From an uncultured virus (IMG/VR IMGVR_UViG_3300027741_000049) (Duplodnaviria > Heunggongvirae > Uroviricota > Caudoviricetes): a stretch of DNA of 20,000 bases. The DNA lies in the IMG/VR virus record IMGVR_UViG_3300027741_000049. One strand, 5' to 3'. A model generated the notes under the pieces. That model was not told the origin of the DNA, did no database searches, and worked only from the letters and a program-made list of their open reading frames with translations. Shown piece by piece: positions 5,717-20,000 of this stretch. Numbering within the stretch: position 1 is the stretch's first letter; each line of letters opens with the position of its first letter. The position numbers and the translations under genes were made by a program.

Positions 5717-5740
5717 TGGCTGGGCTATAAAGCCCAGCCA
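5717..5740. terminator. GC-rich stem-loop after the tail tube gene (weak terminator or mRNA-stabilising hairpin)
   Basis: TGGCTGGGCT-ataa-AGCCCAGCCA forms a perfect 10-bp stem; there is no U-tract on the coding strand. Confidence 0.6.
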
Positions 5741-5754
5741 GTGTTAGTTAACGA

Positions 5755-7469: not shown

Positions 7470-8935
7470 ACTAATACCGCCCTTAATCTATTTTGTACTT
7501 TGCTTTGTGCAATTTCCCTGATTGATTTGCTTATTAACAATTTAGGGTCTCTAGTTTTAGGATACTGCTGTTTACCACCACTGCTAAATGTAGCATAAGG
7601 ATTACGCATATAATTATAAAATGCGGTAATCATTCCCTCACGACTTTGACTTATATTTTCAATTTTAACACTTTCAGCAAATCTACCAGTACGCAGGTTT
7701 AATATGTCTCTACGATTACCGTAGCCCATGTTTTCTTTTACGCGTTGCACCAATTGAGCGTCAAGTAGTCCCCTTAGTGCTGTAAGACTAAAAAATTCAC
7801 CTTTTTTAGTTCTTAGTATATTGGGGCTTGATTTAACCTTAGGTAACTTTATTGCTAATTTTGGAATTTTTAAATCTATTGCAGAAGTTTCGTTATTACC
7901 TTTTACAGCTCTTTGTGCACCGTATTTTTTAGATTTAATTCCTTTTAGTGCATCGCTAATTGATTCGTCCACATATTCTATAAAACTTTTTGAGTTATAA
8001 ACATTAGGAAATAATTTTTGCAAATCTTCTTGCGTTAGAGTTTCTTGTAACACAGAATTTAAAGCTTGATTTAATTCTTTAGATAAACCCTGTGGATCTT
8101 TCATTAAAGAATCTAAATACTGAGTAAAATTACCTTGAATTTCTTTAGCAACAGTACCCTTTAACCTATTAAAAGCTGCAATTTCAAAGGTTACTCCAAT
8201 TTTTTCAGGACTAGCTGTAATTTTTCTTTTTAAATTAACTGTAGTATCAACTTTTACTGATAAAATTTGTTGATTAAGAATCTCTCTGCCAAGATCACTA
8301 AATCCTTTTGAGCCTTGATAACTAAATGCTTTTTTTACTACGTCTTTTATACCCTCAAGAGTTGTAACATCAGAGCCACGTGCTATATTTTTAAATGACT
8401 GACTTTTTTTCAAAAACTTTAAAAGCTGACTACGCGTTTGAACTTTATCTAGTTCTTCGAGAGTTTCAGTATAAGTAGCAATTAATGCTATAGTTTTTGA
8501 TATGTCTTTTAAATCCTGATCTGTTAGTTGATCAATATTATTACGACGTAATGGTAAGTCTTGTTCAAACAACTCTGTTTGCGCTTTACCTTTGCTAGCA
8601 ATTGTTAAATTAGACTGTACATGGCCTATATCAACACCAAGCTCTTTTAGTTCTGTAAAGTTACTTAAAAAGGTTTTCTTTACACTATCAGCAATTTTAC
8701 TAAAAGTAACATCACTAATGCCTTTTTGAGCAATTGCTTCTAGGGCTTGTGCATACTTTTTATTAAACTGTATTTCCGCTTGAGCACTAATTGTGGAAAT
8801 CTGATTTTTTATAGCATCTAAATCTTCTTCTAAATAGTGTACTGCTTTTTTATTTAATTCATCTCTATAAGATTTATTACTTTGAATTGCGTCACGATAT
8901 TTTTTAAAAAATACTTCTAAAACTGTACGTGCCAT
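7466..8935 (-). CDS. Tail completion protein (T5 p143-like) with a long N-terminal extension
   Basis: C-terminal LNLRTGRFAESVKI...YNYMRNPYATF...RDPKLLISKSIREIA motif; position between head completion and tail terminator genes, overlapping both. Confidence 0.78.
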   Translation of the reverse strand: MARTVLEVFFKKYRDAIQSNKSYRDELNKKAVHYLEEDLDAIKNQISTISAQAEIQFNKKYAQALEAIAQKGISDVTFSKIADSVKKTFLSNFTELKELGVDIGHVQSNLTIASKGKAQTELFEQDLPLRRNNIDQLTDQDLKDISKTIALIATYTETLEELDKVQTRSQLLKFLKKSQSFKNIARGSDVTTLEGIKDVVKKAFSYQGSKGFSDLGREILNQQILSVKVDTTVNLKRKITASPEKIGVTFEIAAFNRLKGTVAKEIQGNFTQYLDSLMKDPQGLSKELNQALNSVLQETLTQEDLQKLFPNVYNSKSFIEYVDESISDALKGIKSKKYGAQRAVKGNNETSAIDLKIPKLAIKLPKVKSSPNILRTKKGEFFSLTALRGLLDAQLVQRVKENMGYGNRRDILNLRTGRFAESVKIENISQSREGMITAFYNYMRNPYATFSSGGKQQYPKTRDPKLLISKSIREIAQSKVQNRLRAVLV

Positions 8936-9510
8936 TATGTATAGTCCGTTCTATACTGGTCTAATACGCGACGAATATGTGCAGGTAGTTGGCTACTAGT
9001 AATATATTCAATTTGAGTTTTATTGGTGCCTGGAGCACTATTGCTGTGCACACTCATATCGCTTTTGCGATAGTATGTTACTAAGTCCATAATAGCTAAA
9101 CCTAAATCAGGCGGAACATCATCCCAGCCACCAAAGTAAGTTAGCTTGTAACCATTTATATATTTGTCAAAACCTTTAGGCCATAAACTAACTATGCTAT
9201 CACCATCTTTTACCCAGTCTACGTACTGTGTAAGAGTTGTATAAGTTTTTCCAAAGTCTACACTACTTTCAAGTTTTGTAATACTTACTAAAGGAGTCTC
9301 TGTGGGTAGTATAGTATTAAAACCACCCGAAAATATTTCTACTTTTTGTGGATCTGGTGCTGCAAAGTAGTCTACAAATGTTCTGCCGCAGTAATTTTTT
9401 ACAAACAATGATATGCGAGGAATAAGTGCATCAATTTCAGCATCGTAATTTGTGCTTTTAATTCCGGCATAAGTTTTGTATTCTGCTTGAGTAATTAGGT
9501 TATATGCCAT
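8935..9510 (-). CDS. Head completion / head-tail adaptor protein (T5 p144-like)
   Basis: LITQAEYKTYAGI...VPPDLGLAIMDLVTYY...LPAHIRRVLDQYR; follows the capsid gene. Confidence 0.87.
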   Translation of the reverse strand: MAYNLITQAEYKTYAGIKSTNYDAEIDALIPRISLFVKNYCGRTFVDYFAAPDPQKVEIFSGGFNTILPTETPLVSITKLESSVDFGKTYTTLTQYVDWVKDGDSIVSLWPKGFDKYINGYKLTYFGGWDDVPPDLGLAIMDLVTYYRKSDMSVHSNSAPGTNKTQIEYITSSQLPAHIRRVLDQYRTDYT

Positions 9511-9552
9511 ATTATTCCCCTATGTCTTTTAAATAAACTCCTTAAAAGCTTA

Positions 9553-9581
9553 TTTAAAAGACAGGGCTTTTCAGCCCTGTC
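9553..9581 (-). terminator. Rho-independent terminator after the capsid gene
   Basis: Minus strand GACAGGGCT-gaaa-AGCCCTGTC followed by TTTTAAA. Confidence 0.75.
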
Positions 9582-9604
9582 AGTACTAATATTAAATTAG
9601 TAGA

Positions 9605-10951
9605 TCAAGTGTACTTGAGTGTTGTAGCACCAACGCCATAGTTGCTGGTAACCTGTACAAAACCTGTACGTAGGCTAGCAACCATTACACGACGTTGTGT
9701 TTCAACTAGCTCTTGTGTATCAATACGTAAGCCGCGCTGATTACCAACTACGAAGTTACCTGGTGCAAAACAAACTGCAGCAATACTACCGCTTGTACCA
9801 GTACCAACAAATTCACCAGAAACTAGTACTGGTGAATTACCAATTTGGCCAATTTGGCCAGTTAGTAATGTAGCCTGTGTACCAACTTGGTTCATAGTCT
9901 GGAATACTGAATCCTCGAGTAGATTGTAGTAAGTTGTATTATCAACAACATAAACTACATCGGCTGGGTCAAGACCCCAAACTCCAAGATTTTTACGTAG
10001 ATTACGTAGGCTAGCAACAGTAATTAGTGCACCACTACTACCATTAGTACCTTGACCTACAGTACCAGCTAAAGTTACTAGGCCACTAACTGGATCACCA
10101 GTAGTACCTGCACCACGTAGAAATGCGCGGTCAACTGCACGAGCAACACGACGAATCATACCGTCACGAATTACAGGCATAATAGCAATAAGGCTATCTT
10201 CCTCTTCTTCGTAGGCTGTGTACTCATTGGTAGCAACTTTGTATGCACTGAGTGTGACTTCTTTGATATAATGTACAACAGTATTACCACCACTTGTTGT
10301 TGTACCAAAGTTACCATTGTCAATCCACTGTGCAACACCTGCTTCTGGATTAACTGGAATCTTCATTACGTTAGTTTGCATACCAATTTGACGGAATAGT
10401 GGTGCGACGACTAGGCGACGACGAACCTCAGCTTCCATATTTAAGCTAACTTCTTGTTCCCAAGTAGAGTTAGGTAGGTGCGGGCCTTGACCACTACCAG
10501 CATACTTTTGAACCATTTCTTTGCCAAACTTAGTACCATCAATTGTGGTATTAGCCATTTTAGCTAAAAGAACTGCCTTTTCCTTATCAGCATAAGACAT
10601 TTCGCCGTTTTTAATATCAGCAAACTGCATACGTGATTTTTGAATAGCTTCTAGTTCAGCAGCTTTTTCTTTTAGTGTAGCTTCTAGACCCGCAATAGCT
10701 GACTTGTGTGATTGCTCTTGTTCAGCAACACGTTTTTCAACTTCAGCTAGTAGGCGCTCTGCACCTGTGTCAACTGTTTGCACTTGTGCAACAGCAGCTT
10801 TGATTTTTGCGTCAAGCTCAGCTTGAGCGCGGTCTTGTGCTGCGCGTTCTTGAGCAGCTTTAGTGGTTTCAGCAGCAATAGCTTTTGCTGTTTCAGTAGC
10901 AGCTTGACGAGCTGTGTCAGCTAGCAATTTTTCTAGTTCTTTAGAATCCAT
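9605..10951 (-). CDS. Major capsid protein precursor from an internal in-frame start (448 aa)
   Basis: AAAGGA-atggaac-ATG at codon 199 of the fusion ORF; the product size is close to a stand-alone T5-type capsid precursor. Confidence 0.7.
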   Translation of the reverse strand: MDSKELEKLLADTARQAATETAKAIAAETTKAAQERAAQDRAQAELDAKIKAAVAQVQTVDTGAERLLAEVEKRVAEQEQSHKSAIAGLEATLKEKAAELEAIQKSRMQFADIKNGEMSYADKEKAVLLAKMANTTIDGTKFGKEMVQKYAGSGQGPHLPNSTWEQEVSLNMEAEVRRRLVVAPLFRQIGMQTNVMKIPVNPEAGVAQWIDNGNFGTTTSGGNTVVHYIKEVTLSAYKVATNEYTAYEEEEDSLIAIMPVIRDGMIRRVARAVDRAFLRGAGTTGDPVSGLVTLAGTVGQGTNGSSGALITVASLRNLRKNLGVWGLDPADVVYVVDNTTYYNLLEDSVFQTMNQVGTQATLLTGQIGQIGNSPVLVSGEFVGTGTSGSIAAVCFAPGNFVVGNQRGLRIDTQELVETQRRVMVASLRTGFVQVTSNYGVGATTLKYT

Positions 10952-11545
10952 GTTCCATTCCTTTGTAGTGTCGCTATTTGCCGTATTACTGGAGTCTAGC
11001 CCTTTAGCTGGCGCCTGGGTAGTGGCAAATTGCAGTTTAAAAAATTTAAGTTCTTCGTCGCTGTTAAACGACTTAGATAAACTAAATATTGTGTTTTGGT
11101 TTGCAGGTACGGACACTACTGAAATTTCATGTAGTTCCAAGTCTTTAACAACAAACAGCTCTTGGGCTGCATTATATTCCGCATCAACGATACGAAAACC
11201 AATACTAAAAGCGGATAACACTCCGTCTTTAATTAGATTAAACACTTCGCCTGCAGCTGCAGAAATACGTGCTTTAATCCATAAACCTTTACTGTCTACT
11301 CTGTGATCTACCATACGGCCAATAGGCTCACTGTGATCATGATAGGCTAAAATTACTGGATTTTTTAAGTAATTGTCTAGCCCTTGCTTCCACACTTGCG
11401 GTGGTACAATGTCACCCTGTCTATCTACATCTTGGGTACTTGCGTAGCCCTCGATCATGATACTGTCAATTGTCATGTCTTTGGTAGGCAGAGTACTTTT
11501 GGTAAAAACACTTGTTATATTAAGTAGCTTATTTTTATCTACCAT
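9605..11545 (-). CDS. Fused HK97-type prohead protease + scaffold/major capsid protein
   Basis: aa 1-160 carry prohead protease motifs (IEGYAST..DRQGD, YLKNPVILAYHDH..PIG, AFSIGF, ELHEISVVSVPANQ). aa 199-646 are a coiled-coil delta domain followed by an HK97-fold capsid (EVRRRLVVAPLFRQI, RAFLRG). Confidence 0.93.
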   Translation of the reverse strand: MVDKNKLLNITSVFTKSTLPTKDMTIDSIMIEGYASTQDVDRQGDIVPPQVWKQGLDNYLKNPVILAYHDHSEPIGRMVDHRVDSKGLWIKARISAAAGEVFNLIKDGVLSAFSIGFRIVDAEYNAAQELFVVKDLELHEISVVSVPANQNTIFSLSKSFNSDEELKFFKLQFATTQAPAKGLDSSNTANSDTTKEWNMDSKELEKLLADTARQAATETAKAIAAETTKAAQERAAQDRAQAELDAKIKAAVAQVQTVDTGAERLLAEVEKRVAEQEQSHKSAIAGLEATLKEKAAELEAIQKSRMQFADIKNGEMSYADKEKAVLLAKMANTTIDGTKFGKEMVQKYAGSGQGPHLPNSTWEQEVSLNMEAEVRRRLVVAPLFRQIGMQTNVMKIPVNPEAGVAQWIDNGNFGTTTSGGNTVVHYIKEVTLSAYKVATNEYTAYEEEEDSLIAIMPVIRDGMIRRVARAVDRAFLRGAGTTGDPVSGLVTLAGTVGQGTNGSSGALITVASLRNLRKNLGVWGLDPADVVYVVDNTTYYNLLEDSVFQTMNQVGTQATLLTGQIGQIGNSPVLVSGEFVGTGTSGSIAAVCFAPGNFVVGNQRGLRIDTQELVETQRRVMVASLRTGFVQVTSNYGVGATTLKYT

Positions 11546-11557
11546 AAGTTCTCCGTT

Positions 11558-12745
11558 TTATTCTTTTGGTACGCTTTGAGGCCTGCCGCCTTGTGCTGGA
11601 TTTACAGCACTGCCTGCAATATTAGCAGGTATACGTAAGGTATCATTTCCATCAATTGGCGTGTATCGTAGTTCTACTCTAGCTTCATTTGGCGTAATAA
11701 TTCCAGCATTTACTAGTGTTTGGTGATAGTTTGCAATATCTTTTAGCTCTGGCTGTAGCGCACTTACTGTACTAGTAATAGCTTCTATATCATAACCATA
11801 ATAACGTTCAAGAGCACTAATAAACTTTCTTATTACTGGCATTACTGTTTCTAAATAAAACAGTCGCAGGTTAGGACTAATGTTAGCATTATTACCACCG
11901 TCTAGTAAAATAGGCGGAACACCAATTACTTGCAGCAATAAATCGTTGTGAGTTTTAACTGCATTGTCAAAGTCTAAGTCTTTGTAACTATTATTGCTTA
12001 TTGAATGTGGCTTTAAGCCGCTGTCTAAAATAACTGGTCGTTTACCACCAGTTTTATTACTGTAACGTTGTAGCCAATATTGTACTGTTTTTTCTTTAGC
12101 AACTTGTGATAAAGTATTATCACTAGTAAGTACAAAGCCAAAGGTTGCACCGTTGTCAAAAAATTGTGTTTGAAACTTGTGCATAGAGTCCAACAAATCA
12201 ATACTATGTTGTGCTGCCTCTAGTCTACTAGCTCCGCGATAAATGCTTTGTGAACTTAAGTCGCGAAAATGAAATACGTCTTTTTCTTCAAAGTCAATAT
12301 AACCGTTGTAGCGGTAACCTCGAATAAAAGTTTTAGTGTCTGTTAAAATTTCTGTGTACTGAGCTGGCAAGTGATACATAAATACACCATCAAAGTGTAT
12401 AAATACATTGCCTTCTAAGATTAGATCTTGAAATATAGCTTGACGAAATTCTTGAACACTTTGATAAGGATTAGGTCTATAGTTAAGTAAATTTAATAAC
12501 TGTTTTTGCCTAATACCGCTGACTACACCTTCAATTACTTTATCTTTTACATCGTAGTCTAGTGAACTTGCTGCACTAACTACCATGTTTACAGCTCTGT
12601 TAACTACTTCTAAATTTCTAAATGCTAGTTGATATGTAATCTTGCTGGTAGTAGGTATGTGAGTACCTTCAGCCTGTGCAATTCTTACTTGTGCAGGATT
12701 TAGTTTTTCACGAATCCACTGCACACTATCTTTAATTAAACCCAT
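11558..12745 (-). CDS. Portal protein (T5 pb7-like, HK97 family)
   Basis: WIREKLNPAQ, LNYRPNPYQS, GVPPILLDGGNNANISPNLRLFYLETV, GIITPNEAR, RIPANIAGSA. The ATG at 12745 has an AGGA SD and is preferred over the TTG at 12760. Confidence 0.93.
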   Translation of the reverse strand: MGLIKDSVQWIREKLNPAQVRIAQAEGTHIPTTSKITYQLAFRNLEVVNRAVNMVVSAASSLDYDVKDKVIEGVVSGIRQKQLLNLLNYRPNPYQSVQEFRQAIFQDLILEGNVFIHFDGVFMYHLPAQYTEILTDTKTFIRGYRYNGYIDFEEKDVFHFRDLSSQSIYRGASRLEAAQHSIDLLDSMHKFQTQFFDNGATFGFVLTSDNTLSQVAKEKTVQYWLQRYSNKTGGKRPVILDSGLKPHSISNNSYKDLDFDNAVKTHNDLLLQVIGVPPILLDGGNNANISPNLRLFYLETVMPVIRKFISALERYYGYDIEAITSTVSALQPELKDIANYHQTLVNAGIITPNEARVELRYTPIDGNDTLRIPANIAGSAVNPAQGGRPQSVPKE

Positions 12746-12753
12746 GGTTTTTC

Positions 12754-13182
12754 CTAACAAAATTCGCTAAAGAAACTACCACGTGTTTGCTTAGTACTTG
12801 TACCGCCCAGTTTAACCTTGTCACGTTGAATTTCTATCCAACGCTGCTGTTTAGACTCACTGCCTGGTTGAGGAGTTTTACCGTAAACACCGTGAAGCGC
12901 TACATGATGTGGATTACATAGGGTGTAAACTTGCTCATATAACTCTACGCGATGGCTATCAATAAACTCGTCTCTAACCGCCAAGATGCCTTCATCAGTT
13001 GAAATATCATACTGCATTTTTTGTGCCCAGCGCTCTAGTAAGAGTGTTACGCTATGCAAGTGATGTAATTCTAGGTCGTTGCCGGTGTTGCAAATATAGC
13101 AATGATCCTGCTTTGTATAAGCAGACTTGGCTTTATCTCTAACGTGTTTAACGGGTATACGTTTATTTGTATTCTTTGCCAT
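12754..13182 (-). CDS. HNH nicking endonuclease (T5-type, packaging-associated)
   Basis: KHVRDKAKSAY..DHCYIC...LELHHLHS...TLCNPHHVALHGVYG (CxxC, HH, CxxHH); conserved position between terL and portal. Confidence 0.87.
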   Translation of the reverse strand: MAKNTNKRIPVKHVRDKAKSAYTKQDHCYICNTGNDLELHHLHSVTLLLERWAQKMQYDISTDEGILAVRDEFIDSHRVELYEQVYTLCNPHHVALHGVYGKTPQPGSESKQQRWIEIQRDKVKLGGTSTKQTRGSFFSEFC

Positions 13183-13622
13183 TACTTAAGTGAACTGCGA
13201 AGCATCCATGAATGCTTTTTGTGTGCATCTTGACGATCTGCTAAAAAGTTTGATAGTCCGTGATCGCCAAATTCTTCTGCAATCATAAATAACTGTTGAA
13301 ATTTCATAGCCATCATGTCTGAATCTAGTAACAGCTCTTGCAGCAGACCTTTCCAGTCACCTGGAGCATTTTCATCGCTGATATAGGTTAGCTGTGAAAA
13401 TTGTGATAAACTAGCAGGAGCTACAATTTGTAGGGCACGCAGTTCTTCTGCAAAAGTATCAATAGACTCTAAAACTTCGTTATAGATACGCTCTAACATT
13501 AAGTGTAGTTGGTAAAAAGGTTCGCCTTCTACATTCCAGTGAAAGTTAGCTGCTTTTAAATAAAAACTAAACTCACTGGCAAAAACACGTTTTAGTTCTA
13601 GGTAGTATTCAGTTCGGTCCAT
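13182..13622 (-). CDS. dps: Dps family ferritin-like protein (DNA protection during starvation)
   Basis: Signature NFHWNVEGEPFYQLHLMLERIY...IDTFAEELRAL...HKKHSWMLRS with the ferroxidase H, H, D and E residues present; 146 aa. Confidence 0.92.
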   Translation of the reverse strand: MDRTEYYLELKRVFASEFSFYLKAANFHWNVEGEPFYQLHLMLERIYNEVLESIDTFAEELRALQIVAPASLSQFSQLTYISDENAPGDWKGLLQELLLDSDMMAMKFQQLFMIAEEFGDHGLSNFLADRQDAHKKHSWMLRSSLK

Positions 13623-13655
13623 TATTTCTGCTCAATAATTTTTTATAATATAGCT

Positions 13656-13684
13656 ATTGTACACTCTAGGCACCAACAAGTCAA
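13656..13684 (-). promoter_or_regulatory. sigma70 promoter upstream of dps / head genes
   Basis: Minus strand TTGACT-17 nt-TACAAT with upstream AAAAAATTT. Confidence 0.78.
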
Positions 13685-13701
13685 CATAAATTTTTTATCA
13701 G

Positions 13702-14991
13702 CTAAATAGTATAAGTATAAAGTGCATAACGAATAGCATCAGCCATGTGTGAATACTTATCATGTACGGGACGTTCACGTTGCAAACCTTCGCGACTGTC
13801 CCAGCGATACTGGTCCATTACGTCTAGGACATTTGTGCAATGCGGTGCAATTTTTAACTTGCCAGTCTCCACCAAAGTTTGTACATAAGCAATGCCTGGT
13901 AGCACGTCTTTTTTAGCTTTAGTGCTACTAATGTTGTAGGTATAGGCAAGATCACCAGCAAATTGTGCTGCTGCCGAATCAATAAACACTACTTCAATTT
14001 GCCACTTGTCAATATATTCACGAAATGCTACAGCATGCTTGTCAGTAGTAGCTTCACTTTTTAAGTACTCATCTATGATATGAAATTGGTCACTATGAGG
14101 GTTATAACTAATAACCACGAAAGCAGTAGCATCACGATAGCCGGGATCGCAGCCAGCAATGTACTCACAGCCGTCTTGATGTTCATATTCACAAACCCCT
14201 AGTTGTCGATTAAAACTATAAATCTGACCCTCAAACACATTAAAACTAGCCAAGTACTCTTGCTCAAATTCAGCTTTTGACATAGATCGCTTGGCTTCTT
14301 GCACATCCGACTCAGCCATACGCGAATTTTCAGTATAGTCTGCGGTTATACTACACCACTCTGGATAGTCTTCTGAAAATCCACGTTGATAAAATTTACT
14401 AAACCAGTTTTGCTGACCGCGGGGAGTAGAGATAAAAATGGCTTTTGAATTAGGGCGGTCTAGTGTAGGGCGCAGCTGCACGTTAAATGCACTTTCGCCA
14501 CCGTCGCCTAGCGCAGCTTCGTCAAAAAGGATAATTTGGTAACTGCGTCCTACTGTAGAGTCTACTGTGCTGAGGGAGCCCATGCGAATTGTACTACCAT
14601 TCGACAATTCCACTACTTTGTCTTTTAGGTTATCGCGCTCGACTTCTAGGTCAAAATGACGTATAAATTTACGTTGCAGTTCAAATGAAATGCTCGACAA
14701 ATTATAATTAGGCGAAATAATAAGCACATTGCATTTTGGTACTAGGCTTACCAGCTGTGCAATAATATTAGCAATGTAGGTTTTGCCAAGTCGACGTGCA
14801 AGTGCAGCGCAAACAAATCTATATTTAGGATTGTTGATTGCGTTGATTAAGGCAATTTGGGGCCTGTTCATTGAGTCCCAAGCACCTAGGAGCTTTAAGT
14901 AATTTTCAATTGGCAGTTTAATAAAACGGGATTCTAGTGGAAACTCTGTGATTTCATCACAGTCTACATCGTCACGTGAAACTTTAAGCAA
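13702..14991 (-). CDS. terL: Terminase large subunit (T5-like)
   Basis: Walker A LARRLGKT, Walker B IILFDEAA, FISTPRG, FEQEYLASF, nuclease DPGYRD and HMADAIRYALY; TTG start with GGAG SD. Confidence 0.96.
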   Translation of the reverse strand: MLKVSRDDVDCDEITEFPLESRFIKLPIENYLKLLGAWDSMNRPQIALINAINNPKYRFVCAALARRLGKTYIANIIAQLVSLVPKCNVLIISPNYNLSSISFELQRKFIRHFDLEVERDNLKDKVVELSNGSTIRMGSLSTVDSTVGRSYQIILFDEAALGDGGESAFNVQLRPTLDRPNSKAIFISTPRGQQNWFSKFYQRGFSEDYPEWCSITADYTENSRMAESDVQEAKRSMSKAEFEQEYLASFNVFEGQIYSFNRQLGVCEYEHQDGCEYIAGCDPGYRDATAFVVISYNPHSDQFHIIDEYLKSEATTDKHAVAFREYIDKWQIEVVFIDSAAAQFAGDLAYTYNISSTKAKKDVLPGIAYVQTLVETGKLKIAPHCTNVLDVMDQYRWDSREGLQRERPVHDKYSHMADAIRYALYTYTI

Positions 14992-15469
14992 GTTTATCTC
15001 CTAGTAGCTTTGAAATAAGCGCTCCGTACTTGGTGCCGTCGCCGCCTTCGTTGATTTGCACGTTTACTTGCGATTTAGGTCCTGCTCGTTCTTGACGCAG
15101 CTTCTCCAGCTGAATTTCTCGGTCTAGTAATTCCATTGACATTTTATGTGATAGTGCTAATAGCTCAGCAATGTCTTTATTGCTGCCTACGTCTGCCTCT
15201 TCCATTTCCTGAAATTTGCGTTTTAATACCGCGTCCATTGCCGACCGCATTTTAAAACGATTGTTAAAGCCTAAGTCAAAGAATACTTGATTAATATAAG
15301 CTTTGACTTCACGGCGCGCTAAAATTCCCGATACGCTTTCAATAGGCAGCGCTAAGTTATCAGCCACAGCACGCGCATCTTGGCACTGCAGGTAGCAATT
15401 GGCCACTTCTAATGCCTCAGGCGAAATGGCTAGCACCTCGGCAGGCGCTGCGGTTGGGCTTAGGTTCAT
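14984..15469 (-). CDS. terS: Terminase small subunit (T5-like)
   Basis: ISPEALEVANCYLQC...EVKAYINQVFFDLGFNNRF...SNKDIAELL...YGALISKL; overlaps the terL start. Confidence 0.87.
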   Translation of the reverse strand: MNLSPTAAPAEVLAISPEALEVANCYLQCQDARAVADNLALPIESVSGILARREVKAYINQVFFDLGFNNRFKMRSAMDAVLKRKFQEMEEADVGSNKDIAELLALSHKMSMELLDREIQLEKLRQERAGPKSQVNVQINEGGDGTKYGALISKLLGDKLA

Positions 15470-15789
15470 TTTCGTAACTTTTCTTCTAGGATAACAATAC
15501 GTTCACGATTTAAGTGGATAAAGTCACGATTTGTCTGGATTTCTTTTTCAAGATCCTGCCGCAGTTTTTCACGTGCTAATTCAGCACCAGTATTAGTAGC
15601 CTGCTTGTTGTCGCTGGTAACTACTAGTGAAATTTTGCCGTTTAGTATGGTAACGTCGTGTTGTAAGTTTTGCAGTGCAGTCATTAAGTACACTACACAA
15701 GTAAATAACAGTGGTAGCAGTGCAAAGCTAATTTTTTCAATTAGTTGGCCTTTGGCGTGTGCTTCTTGTAGTTTTTCATCACTCATCAT
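15466..15789 (-). CDS. Membrane-anchored coiled-coil protein of unknown function
   Basis: AGGAG SD; one hydrophobic segment (ISFALLPLLFTCVVYLMTAL) followed by coiled coil; ATGA overlaps with both neighbours. Confidence 0.75.
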   Translation of the reverse strand: MMSDEKLQEAHAKGQLIEKISFALLPLLFTCVVYLMTALQNLQHDVTILNGKISLVVTSDNKQATNTGAELAREKLRQDLEKEIQTNRDFIHLNRERIVILEEKLRK

Positions 15790-16784
15790 ATTCTCCTTAC
15801 CAAATTATATTTAAATATTTGCCAGCACTTTTCCCACGACCAGCGATAGCTAGCTACTAAAACTACATGACGTGGAATTGCCAGTGCACGAACTACTGCT
15901 AATTTAAGATCTGGGCTGGTATAGCCGGTTCTGTCCAGCTCAATAACGTCTTGTGGACCACAAACTGGATAAGCTGCAACTGGAGTGCCGCAAGCCATGG
16001 CTTCTAGCATTACTATACCAAAAGTGTCCCAGCGGCTGGTAAATACTAAACAGTCTGCTTGTTGATAGTATTGGGCTAAAGCCTTGCCAGTTTGCATGCC
16101 TACAAACTCCACCTCAGGATATTTTTGTTGCAAGTACTTGAGTTGCGGCCCACCACCAACCACAATCTTCTTAGCACCTAAATAGTCCAGTTTACAAAAA
16201 TCTTCGCAAGACTTTTCCACACTTACACGGCCAACCCATAGTAATATAGGATAAGGCGTTTGACGAGGTTCTTGGGCTGGATAAAACTGCGTTCTGTCTA
16301 CACCACGAGTCCAGGGCACAATGTCACCGCAAAAACCGTGTTGTTTAAGTTCATTAACCATGCTGACAGTAGTAGCTAATACCTTGCCTGAATGCTTGTG
16401 AAACCAGCGCAAGTACCTGTAAGTCCACGATTGGGGAACGCCATAGTAACGTTGCAAAGCTTCTGGAATTTTAGTATGATAGCTGGTATTGTACCGCCAA
16501 CCGTGACGATCCATCCAGCAGCGAGCAGCTAAACCTAGTGGACCCTCAGTGGCAATGTGCACATATTGGGGATTTATTTGCTGCAATACCTTACCAATGC
16601 CACGAGGCCACGATAGCCTAATATCGCCGTAACCAGGAGCACCACAATTAGGGAACTGCCGGGGATCACAATATACAATATCATAGCCATCGCGATTTGC
16701 TTCGCGTTCCAAGTTGTGGAACGTTGTAACCACTCCGTTAACTTGCTGGGGGACATTATCCGTTACTACTAGTATTGTTTTCAT
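15786..16784 (-). CDS. agt: GT4 glycosyltransferase, Agt-type diacylglycerol glucosyl/glucuronosyltransferase
   Basis: ILVVTDNVPQQVNGVVTT, VHIATEGPLGL, TSYHT, RGVD, VGRVSVEK, SRWDTFGIVMLEAMACGTPVAAYPV match the GT4 subfamily that pairs with plcP. The GT4 call is secure; lipid specificity is inferred. Confidence 0.85.
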   Translation of the reverse strand: MKTILVVTDNVPQQVNGVVTTFHNLEREANRDGYDIVYCDPRQFPNCGAPGYGDIRLSWPRGIGKVLQQINPQYVHIATEGPLGLAARCWMDRHGWRYNTSYHTKIPEALQRYYGVPQSWTYRYLRWFHKHSGKVLATTVSMVNELKQHGFCGDIVPWTRGVDRTQFYPAQEPRQTPYPILLWVGRVSVEKSCEDFCKLDYLGAKKIVVGGGPQLKYLQQKYPEVEFVGMQTGKALAQYYQQADCLVFTSRWDTFGIVMLEAMACGTPVAAYPVCGPQDVIELDRTGYTSPDLKLAVVRALAIPRHVVLVASYRWSWEKCWQIFKYNLVRRI

Positions 16785-17517
16785 GTTTAATAATCTTCCA
16801 GTTGCCCTCTAGGGTCTCTACCAGTGCAGTACACGACTCTACCCAATCACCCGAATTCATATAACCTACCGCACCTACCGCTTTAATCTCAGCTTTGTGA
16901 ATATGACCGCAAATTACGCCATGGAAGTTACGTTTGTGGGCATATTTAGTAATAGTTTCTTCAAACTGCCAAATAAAGTTAGTAGCGCGTTTTACCTTGT
17001 GTTTTAACCACTGCGACAAACTCCAGTAACCAAAGCCTAGGCGATGTCGCCACTGGTTAAAGTGGGTGTTTAAACCTAAAACAAAATCATAGGCATTGTC
17101 GCCTAGCCAAGCTAACCAAGGTGCTAAACGGGTAATACCATCAAACATATCGCCGTGTGTAACTAACCAGCGGCGATTGTTGAGGTCGAGGTACTCACAC
17201 TGATTTACTACCTCAATTCTGCCAAACTTTAGGCCATAGCTTATTAGTGGGCGGAGAAACTCGTCGTGGTTGCCGGCTACATATATTACACGGGTCTTTT
17301 CACGATTAGCTTTTGCTAAAACATGACGTACTACACTGGTATGCTGATTAGTCCAGCGCAGACGATTTTGCTTGACCTTCCAGCCGTCAATAATATCGCC
17401 GACTAAATAAAGCGTGTCACAAGTGTTCAACTTTAAAAATTGGCTTAGGTACTCAGCTTTGCAAGCTTTAGTGCCTAAGTGCACGTCACTAATAAAGATA
17501 GCCTTGTAGTGTGCCAC
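16756..17517 (-). CDS. plcP: PlcP-type phospholipase C (calcineurin-like metallophosphoesterase, often annotated as LpxH-like)
   Basis: All metal motifs present: FISDVHLG, LVGDIIDGW, GNHDEFLR, THGDMFD, GVICGHIH, plus LGD.AYD, YWSLS and NSGDWVESCTA characteristic of PlcP. GTG start. Confidence 0.87.
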   Translation of the reverse strand: MAHYKAIFISDVHLGTKACKAEYLSQFLKLNTCDTLYLVGDIIDGWKVKQNRLRWTNQHTSVVRHVLAKANREKTRVIYVAGNHDEFLRPLISYGLKFGRIEVVNQCEYLDLNNRRWLVTHGDMFDGITRLAPWLAWLGDNAYDFVLGLNTHFNQWRHRLGFGYWSLSQWLKHKVKRATNFIWQFEETITKYAHKRNFHGVICGHIHKAEIKAVGAVGYMNSGDWVESCTALVETLEGNWKIIKHENNTSSNG

Positions 17518-17519
17518 AG

Positions 17520-17672
17520 TTATTTACCAGACTTGTTGTAGAGATCAAATAAAGTTTTTACCTTTTCCTCTAAAACACCTAGGCGCATGTCTGCTTTGGC
17601 AAAAAGTACCACAATCATAATAAAAGCCACAAATACTGGCCAAGCTTTTAGCATTAGTTCGATAATTTCCAT
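17520..17672 (-). CDS. Small membrane protein (50 aa; TM + short coiled coil), not in the ORF track
   Basis: GGAGG SD, then MEIIELMLKAWPVFVAFIMIVVLFAKADMRLGVLEEKVKTLFDLYNKSGK*. First gene after the promoter; its stop is 2 nt from the plcP start. Confidence 0.8.
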   Translation of the reverse strand: MEIIELMLKAWPVFVAFIMIVVLFAKADMRLGVLEEKVKTLFDLYNKSGK

Positions 17673-17694
17673 GGTTAACCCTCCAGTTTACTAG

Positions 17695-17723
17695 AGTATA
17701 ACACCTTAGGGCCTATATGTCAA
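17695..17723 (-). promoter_or_regulatory. sigma70 promoter driving the orf50-plcP-agt-orf107-terS-terL operon
   Basis: Minus strand TTGACA-tataggccctaaggtgt(17 nt)-TATACT with extended -10 TGn. Confidence 0.83.
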
Positions 17724-17758
17724 CTACAAAAAATTTTGTGGTGTCCAAAAAAATTTTC

Positions 17759-17787
17759 TTGAATTTATTTGCCAATCAGTGTATAAT
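17759..17787 (+). promoter_or_regulatory. Divergent sigma70 promoter for a small membrane protein
   Basis: TTGAAT-17 nt-TATAAT, 20 nt upstream of an ATG with GGGAGA SD. Confidence 0.72.
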
Positions 17788-17807
17788 ATTATTTTTGGGA
17801 GAATTCA

Positions 17808-17957
17808 ATGTGGCGGCTGTGGGCAAAAGCACTGGGTGATAAGTATAGTTTGACTGACAGTGAGGCTGATGTAGTTTGCTGGATTAGAACGTTTATAGTC
17901 TTGTGCTACTTGTTGACTAATTTGGTAATTGTGTTGGGCGTGGTGCATCACTGGTGA
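17808..17957 (+). CDS. Small phage membrane protein (49 aa), not in the ORF track
   Basis: MWRLWAKALGDKYSLTDSEADVVCWIRTFIVLCYLLTNLVIVLGVVHHW*, with its own promoter and SD and a C-terminal hydrophobic helix. It resembles a hypothetical family I recall from aquatic phages. Confidence 0.8.
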   Translation: MWRLWAKALGDKYSLTDSEADVVCWIRTFIVLCYLLTNLVIVLGVVHHW

Positions 17958-18058
17958 GTTTTGGCACCGAAAGTTTTGTGGAAATTTTCTTAAAGTTGGC
18001 CGTATGGTAGGGCCCATATAGTTACAATTATTATAACGTCTAATAACCGCCCTAGTCA

Positions 18059-18117
18059 TTATAAATTCTATAATAATTATATTTTCAATTCAATTTATAA
18101 AATCTATAATAATTATA
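18059..18117. repeat. AT-rich 23-bp direct repeat pair
   Basis: TTATAAATTCTATAATAATTATA (18059-18081) and TTATAAAATCTATAATAATTATA (18095-18117); one mismatch, 36-bp period. Confidence 0.8.
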
Positions 18118-18121
18118 AAAT

Positions 18122-18144
18122 CCCTGCGTCAATATGTCGCACCC
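18122..18144 (+). promoter_or_regulatory. Conserved 23-bp upstream element, copy 1 (dyad TGCGTCA-ATA-TGTCGCA)
   Basis: CCCTGCGTCAATATGTCGCACCC, identical to 19238-19260 and just upstream of a -35 box. Confidence 0.8.
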
Positions 18145-18151
18145 CCTGGGC

Positions 18152-18180
18152 TTGCTTTTCTGAATTGACTAGCCTATAAT
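18152..18180 (+). promoter_or_regulatory. Strong early-type sigma70 promoter for the A2-like gene
   Basis: TTGCTT-17 nt-TATAAT. Confidence 0.82.
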
Positions 18181-18215
18181 TACTACATCGAAACAGCACT
18201 CAAAGGGAGAGCAAA

Positions 18216-18542
18216 ATGGCAGAAAAAGCCGTAAACTATAGCCCTGAGCAAACCGCTCAGATTATTGCCGATTATAAGTCGGGTGTTAGCGTTGAATCGT
18301 TGGCATTGGCAATGGGTAAATCCGTTCGCTCAATCGTTGCTAAACTGTCACGCGAAGGCGTGTATCAGAAAAAAGCATACAAAACCAAAACGGGTGAACC
18401 CGTTGTGAAAAAAGATGCTCATGCTGATGCAATTGGCGCAATCTTGCGCTTGCCTGAGAATGACATCGAATCGCTTACCAAAGCTAACAAGAGCGCATTA
18501 AAAGCGATCTTTGAAGCATTGGCTAATAGCAAGCCAATCTAA
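18216..18542 (+). CDS. A2: T5 A2-like pre-early DNA-binding protein
   Basis: NYSPEQT...KSVRSIVAKLSREGVYQKK...LESL/IESLTKANK pattern resembles T5 A2 (SVRSKLTSAKAYQK...LASLESAK); HTH-like N-terminus; GGGAG SD. Confidence 0.68.
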   Translation: MAEKAVNYSPEQTAQIIADYKSGVSVESLALAMGKSVRSIVAKLSREGVYQKKAYKTKTGEPVVKKDAHADAIGAILRLPENDIESLTKANKSALKAIFEALANSKPI

Positions 18543-18564
18543 TCTAAACTAGGATAACGAACCC

Positions 18565-18927
18565 ATGACCGTCGCAACACTAAATGCCACAATTCAGGCT
18601 CAGGCGACTAAGATATGGGTTCGTTATACTAACATTTACACTAGGCTTGCACTATTCCCGATGCCCGTTATTAAACTTAATAACAGATTGACTAAGACTG
18701 CGGGCCGTTGCTTTATGGAAGCTAACGTAATAGATCTTGGTACTAAATTCTTTAATAAACACCATGACCGTATGCTCTCCGAAATTATGGTACATGAAAT
18801 AGCGCATCAGGTTGACTATAACCTTAATGGCACACCAGCAGGTAATCGTTGGCATGGTAAAACCTGGCAGGATATTATGCTAAACTACGGCGCAACACCT
18901 AACACTTATCACAACATGGAGCTATAA
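18565..18927 (+). CDS. SprT-like zinc metalloprotease
   Basis: IKLNNRLTKTAGRC...HEIAH (HExxH)...HGKTWQDIM is the SprT signature; AGGA SD. Confidence 0.88.
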   Translation: MTVATLNATIQAQATKIWVRYTNIYTRLALFPMPVIKLNNRLTKTAGRCFMEANVIDLGTKFFNKHHDRMLSEIMVHEIAHQVDYNLNGTPAGNRWHGKTWQDIMLNYGATPNTYHNMEL

Positions 18928-19133
18928 TGCTAGCATGGATTGGCACTATTACCAGCATAGCGGGATCTTTTCTGGTTGCAATGGGCGTAATGAATTGGGG
19001 TTATATATGCTTTGCGACTGGATCAATAAGCTGGTTAATAATTGCACTAATGCGGCGTGACAAAGCATTAGGCACACTTAATGGGGCCTTTTTAATAGCT
19101 AATACAATCGGCATTGTTAATTATGTAATTTGA
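18927..19133 (+). CDS. Small integral membrane protein (2-3 TM helices)
   Basis: 68 aa, almost all hydrophobic; TAATG coupling to the SprT-like gene. Confidence 0.75.
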   Translation: MLAWIGTITSIAGSFLVAMGVMNWGYICFATGSISWLIIALMRRDKALGTLNGAFLIANTIGIVNYVI

Positions 19134-19175
19134 AACGACCGGGTGTTGTAAAAAAACAACACCGCTGGCGCCAAA

Positions 19176-19205
19176 ATTATAACATATAATTTTGGGCCGC
19201 GTCAA
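19176..19205 (-). promoter_or_regulatory. Putative antisense-facing sigma70 promoter embedded in a palindrome
   Basis: Minus strand TTGACG-18 nt-TATAAT with TGn extension; the -10 lies inside CCAAAATTAT-aacat-ATAATTTTGG (19171-19195). Confidence 0.55.
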
Positions 19206-19237
19206 GGGGGTGTGCAAAAATACTACACTAGGGAAAA

Positions 19238-19260
19238 CCCTGCGTCAATATGTCGCACCC
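19238..19260 (+). promoter_or_regulatory. Conserved 23-bp upstream element, copy 2
   Basis: Exact copy of 18122-18144. Confidence 0.8.
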
Positions 19261-19267
19261 TGGGCGC

Positions 19268-19295
19268 TTGCACTCTCTGAAAATCGGCGTATAAT
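19268..19295 (+). promoter_or_regulatory. Second early-type sigma70 promoter
   Basis: TTGCAC-16 nt-TATAAT; shares TCTGAA in the spacer and ACTACAT downstream with the promoter at 18152. Confidence 0.75.
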
Positions 19296-19329
19296 TCACT
19301 ACATGGACACAACGCCACGGAACAACGCG

Positions 19330-19485
19330 ATGAAAACCAGCCGATCACACGACGCAGTTATTGCGCTCCTGAAAAAACAATTGCAAACTGAAAGAAAAGA
19401 GATTGTTCGTAATAGTTTCTTTAAGATATTTAATAACCTGAATAACAAACTGAAACAACAATTGTGGATTGAGGCACAATTATGA
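19330..19485 (+). CDS. Hypothetical basic protein (51 aa; alternative in-frame ATG at 19303)
   Basis: MKTSRSHDAVIALLKKQLQTERKEIVRNSFFKIFNNLNNKLKQQLWIEAQL*; downstream of the promoter, ATGA overlap with the next ORF. Confidence 0.6.
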   Translation: MKTSRSHDAVIALLKKQLQTERKEIVRNSFFKIFNNLNNKLKQQLWIEAQL

Positions 19486-19649
19486 AAACAAAATTACACT
19501 TGGTGCTGGCAATGCAAAAAGCCAGCAAACCTGATCCGCGGGCGCATAAGCCCCTATTTGTGAATAGCCCATTTAAGCCAAAGGTTATTCCAAATAAAAA
19601 ACAAAGCAAATTGGCTAAACTGTTTAATGGTTGGGGTTTTGATGACTAA
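19482..19649 (+). CDS. Hypothetical basic protein (55 aa), not in the ORF track
   Basis: GAGG SD; MKTKLHLVLAMQKASKPDPRAHKPLFVNSPFKPKVIPNKKQSKLAKLFNGWGFDD*; overlaps both neighbours. Confidence 0.68.
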   Translation: MKTKLHLVLAMQKASKPDPRAHKPLFVNSPFKPKVIPNKKQSKLAKLFNGWGFDD

Positions 19650-19839
19650 ATTTAATTTGATTGAACAGGCCGCAAGGTTTGAAACGTCGCAATTAACCCG
19701 CGACGAATTGATTTACTTTGTAGAATCTGTTAAAATGCACGAGATGATGGAATTGGATTATCCGGCACTAGTAAAACGCATTGAGCGTACTGCTAAACAC
19801 TTGGTCGATGTTGCACGTTTTTTTAACAAAGGGGAATGA
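19642..19839 (+). CDS. Hypothetical protein (65 aa)
   Basis: MTKFNLIEQAARF...; the ATG at 19642 follows GGGG and overlaps the upstream stop. Confidence 0.65.
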   Translation: MTKFNLIEQAARFETSQLTRDELIYFVESVKMHEMMELDYPALVKRIERTAKHLVDVARFFNKGE

Positions 19840-19841
19840 TT

Positions 19842-20000
19842 ATGTTTATGGCTAAAAGCACTAATGACGAAACCATTATGTCAATGGGCAATTCCATTGA
19901 GGAAGTATGGCAAGACTTGCAATTCGGTTTTGAATTGACCGATGATGATTTTGAGGATTTAGAGTGGTTTGAGATTGATCCAATTACCGTAAAACGTAAG
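19842..20000 (+). CDS. Hypothetical acidic protein, truncated by the window edge
   Basis: AAGGGG SD; MFMAKSTNDETIMSMGNSIEEVWQDLQFGFELTDDDFEDLEWFEIDPITVKRK, open to the end. Confidence 0.65.
   Translation, partial: MFMAKSTNDETIMSMGNSIEEVWQDLQFGFELTDDDFEDLEWFEIDPITVKRK

Follow-up and report, generated by a model that had tools for sequence, protein, structure and literature searches.

Among marine bacterial isolates, the commonest neighbourhood of plcP, the gene of a metallophospholipase C, consists of plcP followed by agt, the gene of a diacylglycerol glycosyltransferase (>25%; PMC4796936), and operons of this kind are exemplified by PA3219-PA3218 of Pseudomonas aeruginosa (PMC8528852) and plcP-agt-dagK of Burkholderia cenocepacia (PMC13691135). 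PA3219 shares 46-47% identity with the PlcPs of Phaeobacter MED193 and S. meliloti, and the characterised Agts are 35-41% identical, the Agt of MED193 matching PA3218 (Agt1, with the product monoglucosyldiacylglycerol, MGDG) at 41% and PA0842 (Agt2, with the product glucuronic acid diacylglycerol, GADG) at 35% (PMC8528852). Within this work we analysed a 20,000-nucleotide (nt) stretch of DNA from an uncultured virus of the Caudoviricetes (IMG/VR record IMGVR_UViG_3300027741_000049; the whole stretch is called the window below), in which a metallophosphoesterase of 253 amino acids (aa) and a 332-aa glycosyltransferase of the GT4 type are encoded side by side. Judging by their sequences, the two genes are very probably orthologues of plcP and agt, and we consider it likely that they form an auxiliary metabolic 'lipid renovation' cassette in the late operon of a lytic T5-like freshwater phage.

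The open-access literature (Creative Commons PMC papers and bioRxiv) yielded no account of PlcP, alone or paired with Agt, being encoded by a phage, subscription-only papers lying outside the search. One paper mentions plcP as a host gene only (PMC9804370), a pelagimyophage study reads phage glycosyltransferases and uridine diphosphate (UDP)-glucose dehydrogenase as related to lipopolysaccharide (LPS; PMC7029224), and a virocell study describes lipid remodelling in infected cells as little known (PMC12282109).

Assignment of the phosphoesterase

The original prediction described adjacent, overlapping and intact genes for a phosphoesterase and a GT4 enzyme, and this description holds: both open reading frames (ORFs) lie uninterrupted on the minus strand within the bounds it gave and share 29 nt (16756-16784), and the motifs that it quoted (GNHDEF, GYWSLSQ, MNSGDWVESCTALV, VTDNVPQQVNGVV, HIATEGPLG and WDTFGIVMLEAM) are all found in the translations.

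The 253-aa protein matches the Pfam family Metallophos (1.3e-12, 49 bits at a cut-off of 21.5), while its scores with the two NCBIfam equivalog models of LpxH fall below their cut-offs (NF003743, 45.1 bits vs 134; TIGR01854, 32.6 bits vs 190.35). Similar values are displayed by bacterial homologues, as the PlcP-homologous locus scores 39-55 bits with the LpxH model in all five bacterial genomes searched; in four of them a separate true LpxH (218-335 bits) is encoded at a different locus, and the fifth (Methylopila) has no match above the cut-off. In a tree of 66 rows, LpxH is parted from every PlcP-like row with a Shimodaira-Hasegawa-like approximate likelihood ratio test (SH-aLRT) support of 100. 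The phylogenetic comparison with LpxH that had been proposed as a check thus places the phosphoesterase with the plcP-locus proteins, apart from LpxH.

The alignment of 26 bacterial PlcPs, 34 viral PlcPs and three LpxH sequences revealed 60 positions at which the residue of the window protein is conserved to at least 95% in both the bacterial and the viral set. All seven metal ligands (D11, H13, D41, N83, H121, H205 and H207), which are common to bacterial PlcPs and LpxH, are kept, and so are the PlcP-specific residues H84, E86 and R89 (of GNHDEFLR), C203, Y219 and V226-E227-S228, where the three LpxH sequences have R, F, G, H, R and D/E-K/R-Q/C. GNHDE, YWSLS and GDWVES, initially pointed out in the phosphoesterase, are accordingly borne out as signatures of the PlcP clade. 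We therefore assign the phosphoesterase, as far as its sequence goes, to PlcP and not to LpxH.

By structure, LpxH is the nearest relative. An AlphaFold (AF2) model from 26 sequences, with a mean predicted local distance difference test (pLDDT) score of 79.4, has LpxH in all of its 23 best-ranked PDB rows, and a helical insertion at approximately residues 123-195, modelled with low confidence, corresponds to the lipid-binding cap. The sequence search of the PDB likewise gave LpxH as the closest entry and found no solved PlcP or Agt structure.

These structural matches bear on the reading that the database labels imply, namely a true LpxH (UDP-2,3-diacylglucosamine diphosphatase) accompanied by a GT4 that modifies lipid A, LPS or O-antigen. 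Source annotations of the homologues say LpxH, the nearest ESM Atlas clusters (with Uroviricota as the commonest known phylum) are named LpxH-type hydrolases, a marine survey includes viral 'lpxH' in its list of LPS auxiliary genes (PMC10653327), and O-antigen modification is the role usually ascribed to phage glycosyltransferases (PMC7029224). The equivalog score far below the cut-off, the separate LpxH paralogue of bacterial genomes, the fully supported split of the tree and the GNHDE signature with the further clade-specific residues all disfavour it, as does the PDB match itself, which reaches only E 0.004 with the single protein and 1e-4 with a profile; the best matches of the glycosyltransferase, too, are plcP-linked proteins and not LPS-core transferases (see below). 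We hold a true LpxH, with an LPS-directed partner, to be very improbable.

Assignment of the glycosyltransferase

The 332-aa protein has both halves of a GT-B-fold GT4 enzyme, matching Glyco_transf_4 in its N-terminal half (7e-14) and Glyco_trans_1_4 and Glycos_transf_1 in its C-terminal half (~5e-20 each). It reached none of the NCBIfam equivalog models (best 54 bits vs a cut-off of 480), and its sequence matches in the PDB are generic GT4s of at most 59 bits. When five bacterial genomes were queried with the phage protein, the plcP-adjacent glycosyltransferase was the best match genome-wide in all four genomes that have one (239-258 bits, 42-46% identity); the glycosyltransferase downstream of plcP in P. 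nitroreducens is 42% identical. One genome (G004) carries a second, nearly equal Agt copy elsewhere (254 bits), and the remaining GT4s of the genomes score no more than 102 bits. A Pseudomonas genome with no plcP-adjacent glycosyltransferase yielded only a 35%-identical match, the level at which an Agt2-like gene would be expected to match.

In a tree of 42 rows, the phage protein groups with the plcP-adjacent bacterial Agts, apart from two Agt2-like rows (support 99). In the alignment of 18 sequences NGVVTT, HIATEGP, R186, K191 and E261 are invariant; the phage protein has the motif D253-x7-E261, and several relatives have E-x7-E. The second phylogenetic check suggested at the outset, that of Agt against other GT4s, thus also came out in favour of Agt, the protein standing with the plcP-adjacent sequences and away from Agt2-like and other GT4s. 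The transferase is assigned on these grounds to Agt of the plcP-linked (Agt1) type.

Non-lipid targets were considered as well, e.g., a nucleotide or DNA phosphoesterase acting together with a GT4 that glycosylates DNA or protein for anti-defence. PlcP has weak PHROGs matches to 'DNA repair exonuclease' and SbcD-like families, and the transferase has a Pfam GT4-conflict match of 22.9 bits, under the 26-bit cut-off. The PHROGs matches, however, span only the N-terminal 85 residues, i.e., the shared metallophosphoesterase N-terminus, whereas the protein conforms to the LpxH/PlcP type over its full length, in its cap insertion and in its clade signatures; the reciprocal-match test of Agt points to plcP-adjacent genes, and a complete relative of the phage (G407, see below) already possesses a separate SbcCD-like pair. 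The chance that the pair acts on such targets appears slight.

Bacterial plcP-agt loci

Bacterial genome contigs gave no match to the single-protein query, and an alignment query was used instead; it detected at least 594 loci, of which the best 80, mostly from Pseudomonas, were kept. The phage PlcP is 49-56% identical to its homologues in these loci and 53-56% identical to Pseudomonas plcP-locus proteins, including that of P. nitroreducens. A GT4 with 41-45% identity to the phage Agt follows on the same strand, 48-120 nt downstream, in 17 of the 80 loci, including that of P. nitroreducens. Of 401 evenly sampled genomes of Pseudomonadota, 124 had a PlcP homologue at E <= 1e-20, none exceeding 56% identity.

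According to the identities given in PMC8528852, the phage PlcP and Agt differ from the bacterial plcP-locus proteins within the range found among the characterised members themselves. The proposed orthology to the characterised enzymes is built on these values and on the Pseudomonas plcP-agt loci.

Conservation and selection in the phage clade

Sixteen related viral loci were found in IMG/VR with a single-protein query, and all 16 encode PlcP and Agt in the same order; wherever the contig extends, the order 50-aa ORF, PlcP, Agt, 107-aa ORF, TerS, TerL is kept. In 15 informative pairwise comparisons with the window, the ratio of nonsynonymous to synonymous substitution rates (dN/dS) was 0.04-0.12 for PlcP and 0.08-0.18 for Agt, next to 0.06-0.09 for TerL and 0.03-0.08 for TerS; these values are rough, because dS was often near or above 1, and their direction is still clear. 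Both genes of the pair are thus, by this measure, under purifying selection in the phage clade, and the pair is conserved in all the loci.

The GC (guanine plus cytosine) content of the two genes is 43-45%, compared with 37.6% in the window, and their GC at third codon positions (GC3) is 38-43%, compared with 14-26% in the portal, capsid and tape-measure genes, as a recent, non-functional passenger from the host might display. This difference is given little weight because TerS is equally rich in GC. Moreover, the frames are intact, the pair is present in every one of the related contigs with the low dN/dS values given above, and the viral sequences form deep clades (see below). With the selection data speaking against it, the passenger explanation deserves almost no credence.

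Separate observations concern the space between the two genes. A conserved ORF of ~57 aa occupies the 160-184-nt PlcP-Agt gap in L010, L012 and L014-L017 (e.g., L012:5746-5919) and is also present in L120, L122, L130, L145 and L157; it has a hydrophobic N-terminus (MWLLIILAV...) followed by a ~45-aa domain with a conserved Cys, and it is not found in the window, whose two genes overlap. In L115 and L158, a different, lysine-rich small ORF lies in the gap.

Distribution among viruses and phosphate-related neighbours

The survey of viral databases that had been suggested for the pair proved fruitful. With the alignment query, at least 588 IMG/VR stretches were found to encode a PlcP relative (588 of 600 pattern-matched stretches), and 80 of these at least 588 loci were kept for analysis, including 74 new ones at 60-67% identity. 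Agt lies within 400 nt downstream in 33 of the 74 and at 675-1156 nt downstream in 11; in 25 no Agt was seen in the available DNA, and in five there is too little downstream DNA to judge.

A Pfam scan covered the 5-kb flanks of PlcP in 11 of the 74 new loci. These flanks contain genes of the T4 type (ribonucleotide reductase, ThyX, SegE-type endonucleases, T4 RNase H, DNA ligase and a cell-wall hydrolase) and, near several of the loci, phosphate-stress genes: PstS in L112 and L157, a phosphate-selective O/P porin in L157 and PhoH in L144. UDP-glucose dehydrogenase, which makes the donor of glucuronosyl lipid, is encoded in L150 (9685-10647) and L165 (468-1712), and none was seen among the 77 Pfam-scanned ORFs of G407. 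The scanned flanks look viral, with the reservation that individual IMG/VR contigs may have been misclassified. By CheckV, three of these records represent 30-69% of larger genomes, and some PlcP loci therefore come from very large phages.

The 34 viral PlcPs all fall into a single clade (support 99), as do all 25 viral Agts (support 100). Relative to the remaining viral sequences, the T5-like group takes a sister position in the PlcP tree and a nested one in the Agt tree. Among isolate phages, only five records with a PlcP-like gene were found at the protein level (25-44% identity), and the best Agt-like match has 30% identity. The closest is the 'UDP-2,3-diacylglucosamine hydrolase' of Pelagibacter phage Mosig (L001, MT647606.1 93031-94866), which is 44% identical to the window PlcP, adjoins a gene annotated as phosphate ABC transporter and groups with Hyphomonadaceae PlcPs (support 95), and this grouping suggests an independent acquisition; judging by sequence, the Mosig gene is probably a separately acquired PlcP mislabelled in the record. 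In Mosig and S-SRM01, tblastn revealed no Agt, and no neighbour is annotated as a glycosyltransferase.

Several of the surveyed loci have further peculiarities. In L150 and L165 PlcP and Agt are separated by a RimK-type ATP-grasp gene (L150:5898-6788, L165:5889-6779), which, together with the UDP-glucose dehydrogenase of these loci, hints at glucuronosyl lipid or at a further modification of the head group. In L176 a GT2 glycosyltransferase (5737-6447) replaces the GT4 Agt directly after PlcP, between two ribonucleotide reductase genes. A BPL_N-like (biotin-protein ligase N-terminal) protein of 210-237 aa is encoded beside or near PlcP or PlcP-Agt in five phage loci, and in G407 such a protein is encoded elsewhere in the genome (Table 1). 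In L167, a 127-kb viral contig, the genes on either side of PlcP-Agt encode FecR, PA14-domain and CHASE2-cyclase proteins and a fatty-acid desaturase (1620-4252, 7640-9694).

Genomic context and phage lineage

In the window, the pair belongs to a minus-strand run consisting of the 50-aa ORF, PlcP, Agt, the 107-aa ORF, TerS, TerL, a ferritin/Dps-like gene, portal, a fused protease-capsid gene, connector and tail genes and the tape measure protein (Pfam and PHROGs), in which consecutive genes either overlap by 4-29 nt or leave a gap of 2 nt (Table 1). Four terminator-like sites were counted within the run against 3.4 expected, all inside coding sequence, and none is convincing. The cassette heads this packaging and structural (late) operon, and the 107-aa ORF is part of the same transcription unit as Agt and TerS.

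Table 1. Coordinates of the cassette, its neighbours and related features; positions without a locus identifier refer to the window.
Feature	Position	Strand	Details
Predicted PlcP-type metallophospholipase C, LpxH-like calcineurin-fold phosphoesterase	16756..17517	-	253 aa, GTG start
Predicted Agt-type GT4 diacylglycerol glycosyltransferase	15786..16784	-	332 aa, ATG start; overlaps the PlcP 3' end by 29 nt
50-aa ORF, one hydrophobic stretch	17520..17672	-	stop 2 nt before PlcP start
107-aa ORF, one hydrophobic stretch and charged C-terminal half	15466..15789	-	4-nt overlap each with Agt stop and TerS start
TerS and TerL, directly downstream of the cassette	13702..15469	-	phrog_3802 at 2e-37; phrog_2 at 7e-41
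TerS	14984-15469	-	
TerL	13702-14991	-	
Ferritin/Dps-like gene	13182-13622	-	Pfam Ferritin 2e-18; phrog_3636
646-aa ORF, apparent protease-capsid fusion	9605-11545	-	head-maturation-protease and major-head-protein PHROGs
84-aa ORF, probably spurious	17805-18059		in the divergent region
Promoter-like site TTGACA-17 nt-TATACT, TG before -10	17695..17723	-	22 nt upstream of the 50-aa ORF
BPL_N-like protein	L112:4314-4961, L157:2240-2953, L158:6869-7519, L167:6996-7643, L176:4340-4987		Pfam
BPL_N-like protein of G407	L197:14699-15331		
TctC-family protein of G407	L198:16269-17210	-	tripartite tricarboxylate transporter receptor

Neither small ORF flanking the pair had a Pfam or PHROG match. A homologue of the 50-aa ORF lies directly upstream of PlcP in 12 of the 16 related viral loci (88-100% identity, tblastn), and the 107-aa ORF was found in 15 of them; homologues of the latter with 61-65% identity also occur in three PlcP-bearing viral loci that are not T5-like (L158, L169 and L171), where they do not adjoin PlcP.

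The promoter-like site agrees with the sigma-70-type consensus at 11 of 12 positions and is the best of 15 sites in 14800-18400 (shuffle mean 7.5); the promoter is a candidate by consensus match, and T5 has annotated promoters in the equivalent divergent region. A Pho box (CTGTCATNNNNCTGTCAT) was sought near the cassette and gave no match with three or fewer mismatches, the consensus possibly not being that of the host; the best match in 17673-18215 has six mismatches and was equalled by 500 of 500 shuffles. Expression therefore has no visible tie to phosphate stress, unlike that of the bacterial operons.

TerL is 50-51% identical to TerL of Vibrio phages of ~113-118 kb, and many records of Salmonella, Escherichia and Klebsiella phages were matched as well. 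The gene order agrees with that of T5 from the tape measure protein through TerL and TerS. In T5, TerL and TerS are followed by oad (pb5), divergent promoters and llp; here the cassette fills the position of oad and is followed by a divergent intergenic region. The placement of the cassette at the oad/llp locus, as proposed originally, is thereby corroborated.

Over positions 8934-19999, the window shares 77-92% DNA identity with G407, an IMG/VR record of 99,362 bp with direct terminal repeats, rated as 100% complete; a second complete T5-like relative, G408, has 99,208 bp. The Pfam scan of G407 covered 77 of its 93 ORFs of at least 100 aa and recognized the replication genes for DNA polymerase A, DnaB-like helicase, Toprim primase, split NAD-dependent ligase, flap endonuclease and the SbcCD-like pair, as well as ribonucleotide reductase, ThyX, PhoH, Hsp20, ClpP, UvdE and a TctC-family receptor; no integrase family was present among the 77 ORFs. 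The description of the phage as lytic thus receives indirect support from a complete relative with T5-type replication genes. Two freshwater metagenome runs of other studies contain 94% and 57% of the sampled words of the window; runs with a small share were disregarded as to habitat, and no RNA run was among those listed. No near-identical DNA was found among 50,697 isolate phage records, and the nearest record, G001, is a 16-kb fragment that lacks the gene.

Some features of the lineage are worth recording on their own. The ferritin/Dps-like gene lies between the portal-side genes and TerL, where T5 has an endonuclease, and the two proteins apparently fused in the 646-aa ORF are encoded by separate genes in T5. 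In L010, L011, L017 and L018 TerL starts ~570 nt after the end of TerS, instead of overlapping it, which suggests an inserted small gene, e.g., a homing endonuclease. The TctC family of the G407 receptor protein is greatly expanded in Burkholderiales, which would give a weak hint at the host.

Proposed function of the cassette

In the proposed mechanism PlcP, a binuclear enzyme of the Mn type with an LpxH-like core and a helical lipid-binding cap, would cleave phosphatidylethanolamine, phosphatidylglycerol and phosphatidylcholine of the host to diacylglycerol and a phospho-headgroup, which host phosphatases would turn into phosphate for phage nucleotide synthesis. Agt, as a retaining GT4, would glycosylate the diacylglycerol with a hexose taken from a UDP-sugar (glucose and/or glucuronate), yielding a phosphorus-free glycolipid; this step would prevent the build-up of diacylglycerol, and the bilayer would stay intact until lysis. 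We find it quite likely that phospholipid is converted to glycolipid in infected cells, and phosphorus supply is somewhat favoured as the main benefit of the conversion, being read from the neighbours of the cassette in other phages. Bacterial membranes contain millions of phospholipid molecules, and a 99-kb genome demands ~200,000 phosphorus atoms (arithmetic from the genome length); the membrane pool is therefore large enough to matter.

The same conversion might have been selected for the envelope change that it brings about, i.e., for superinfection exclusion, receptor display, resistance to membrane-active agents, or membrane stability and the timing of lysis. The position of the cassette, exactly where T5 has its receptor-binding gene oad beside the exclusion gene llp, would fit such a role, as would the lack of an upstream Pho box and of PstS in the T5-like relatives and the two small membrane-protein ORFs that flank the pair; besides, glycolipids protect P. 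aeruginosa from polymyxin B (PMC8528852), and the type of membrane lipid influences phage attachment (PMC9938194). On the other hand, phosphate genes recur beside the gene in other phages (PstS near two, the phosphate porin near one and PhoH near one of the 11 scanned loci), and the PlcP-like gene of Mosig adjoins that of a phosphate transporter. New surface lipids alone would call for Agt and not for a phospholipase. Of the 74 new viral loci, the 25 mentioned above show PlcP with no Agt in the available DNA. The two benefits are not mutually exclusive; we consider envelope change unlikely to be the selected one.

Several points weigh against the reading of the pair as a functional phosphorus-supplying cassette or limit its precision. 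The PlcP and Agt trees were quick searches with SH-aLRT as their only support, one of the four outgroup rows of the PlcP tree (L101) is a wrongly cut ORF, uninformative and to be ignored, and the trees cover sequences other than the characterised SMc00171, PA3219, MED193_17359, PB7211_983, Atu2297, PA3218/PA14_22600 and PB7211_960. The clade of viral sequences could reflect an unsampled bacterial donor, the sampling having covered 401 genomes of Pseudomonadota with 56% as the best identity. To these are added the roughness of the dN/dS values, the low confidence of the modelled cap and the outcome of the Pho box search. Substrates and products of the viral copies are those expected by analogy with characterised bacterial enzymes. 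Finally, neither of the two complete T5-like relatives (G407 and G408) has PstS, and the phosphate context is therefore thinner in this lineage than in the T4-like phages.

A broader proposal is that PlcP-Agt is a long-established, virus-adapted cassette moving among T5-like siphophages, T4-like myophages and giant phages, where it would mine membrane phosphorus for phage DNA and patch the bilayer with glycolipid; we put this forward tentatively, with its probability falling just short of even. Phosphorus is a limiting factor for phage production in many lakes and oceans, and a phage-encoded way of releasing it from membrane lipid would add a new class to auxiliary metabolism. The assignment would also correct a systematic mis-annotation of genes labelled lpxH in phage records and protein sources, 'lpxH' being listed among LPS genes in at least one virome survey (PMC10653327). 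If the proposal is true, many auxiliary genes of aquatic viromes now called 'lpxH' or 'LPS glycosyltransferase' would really belong to a phosphorus-mining pathway, and infected cells in phosphorus-poor lakes would bear a virus-imposed glycolipid membrane. The proposed function of the cassette predicts a measurable lipid signature of infection.

Comparison with known systems

With LpxH, the window PlcP shares the calcineurin-like core, the inserted helical cap and the seven metal ligands, LpxH being the nearest solved fold. It differs in staying below the equivalog cut-off, in belonging to a paralogue that is separate from LpxH in bacterial genomes and in having GNHDE, along with other clade-specific residues, where LpxH has GNRD; its expected substrate is a glycerophospholipid and not a UDP-sugar lipid.

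The phosphate-stress genes pstS, phoA and phoH of cyanophages and pelagiphages serve to take up or scavenge external phosphate, some of them acting on unknown targets. The cassette resembles them as a function of the host Pho regulon carried by lytic aquatic phages, and it lies near PstS, the phosphate porin or PhoH in other phages, G407 having PhoH. Unlike these genes, it would draw on the internal pool of the membrane, and no PhoB site was seen near it in the window. Cyanophage-encoded lipid desaturases, reportedly described by Roitman et al. in 2018, are likewise phage genes altering host membrane lipids, but desaturases alter the acyl chains, whereas the cassette would alter the head group and remove phosphorus.

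With the oad (pb5)/llp locus of T5 the cassette has in common its syntenic place in the late operon, upstream of TerS and at the divergent promoter region. The proteins are unrelated, those of T5 being a receptor-binding protein and a lipoprotein that blocks FhuA.

The closest counterpart is the bacterial PlcP-Agt operon ('type 2'; Sebastian et al., 2016, PMC4796936), which comprises the same two families, with plcP upstream of agt on one strand; the phage PlcP and Agt are 49-56% and 41-46% identical to their bacterial counterparts and keep the metal ligands and the PlcP signature residues. Many PlcP homologues, with 256-298 aa, are longer than the phage protein. The phage cassette differs from the bacterial operon in having neither a Pho box nor dagK, in the overlap of its two genes, in heading a lytic phage's late operon, and in the separate clade that the viral copies of each gene form.

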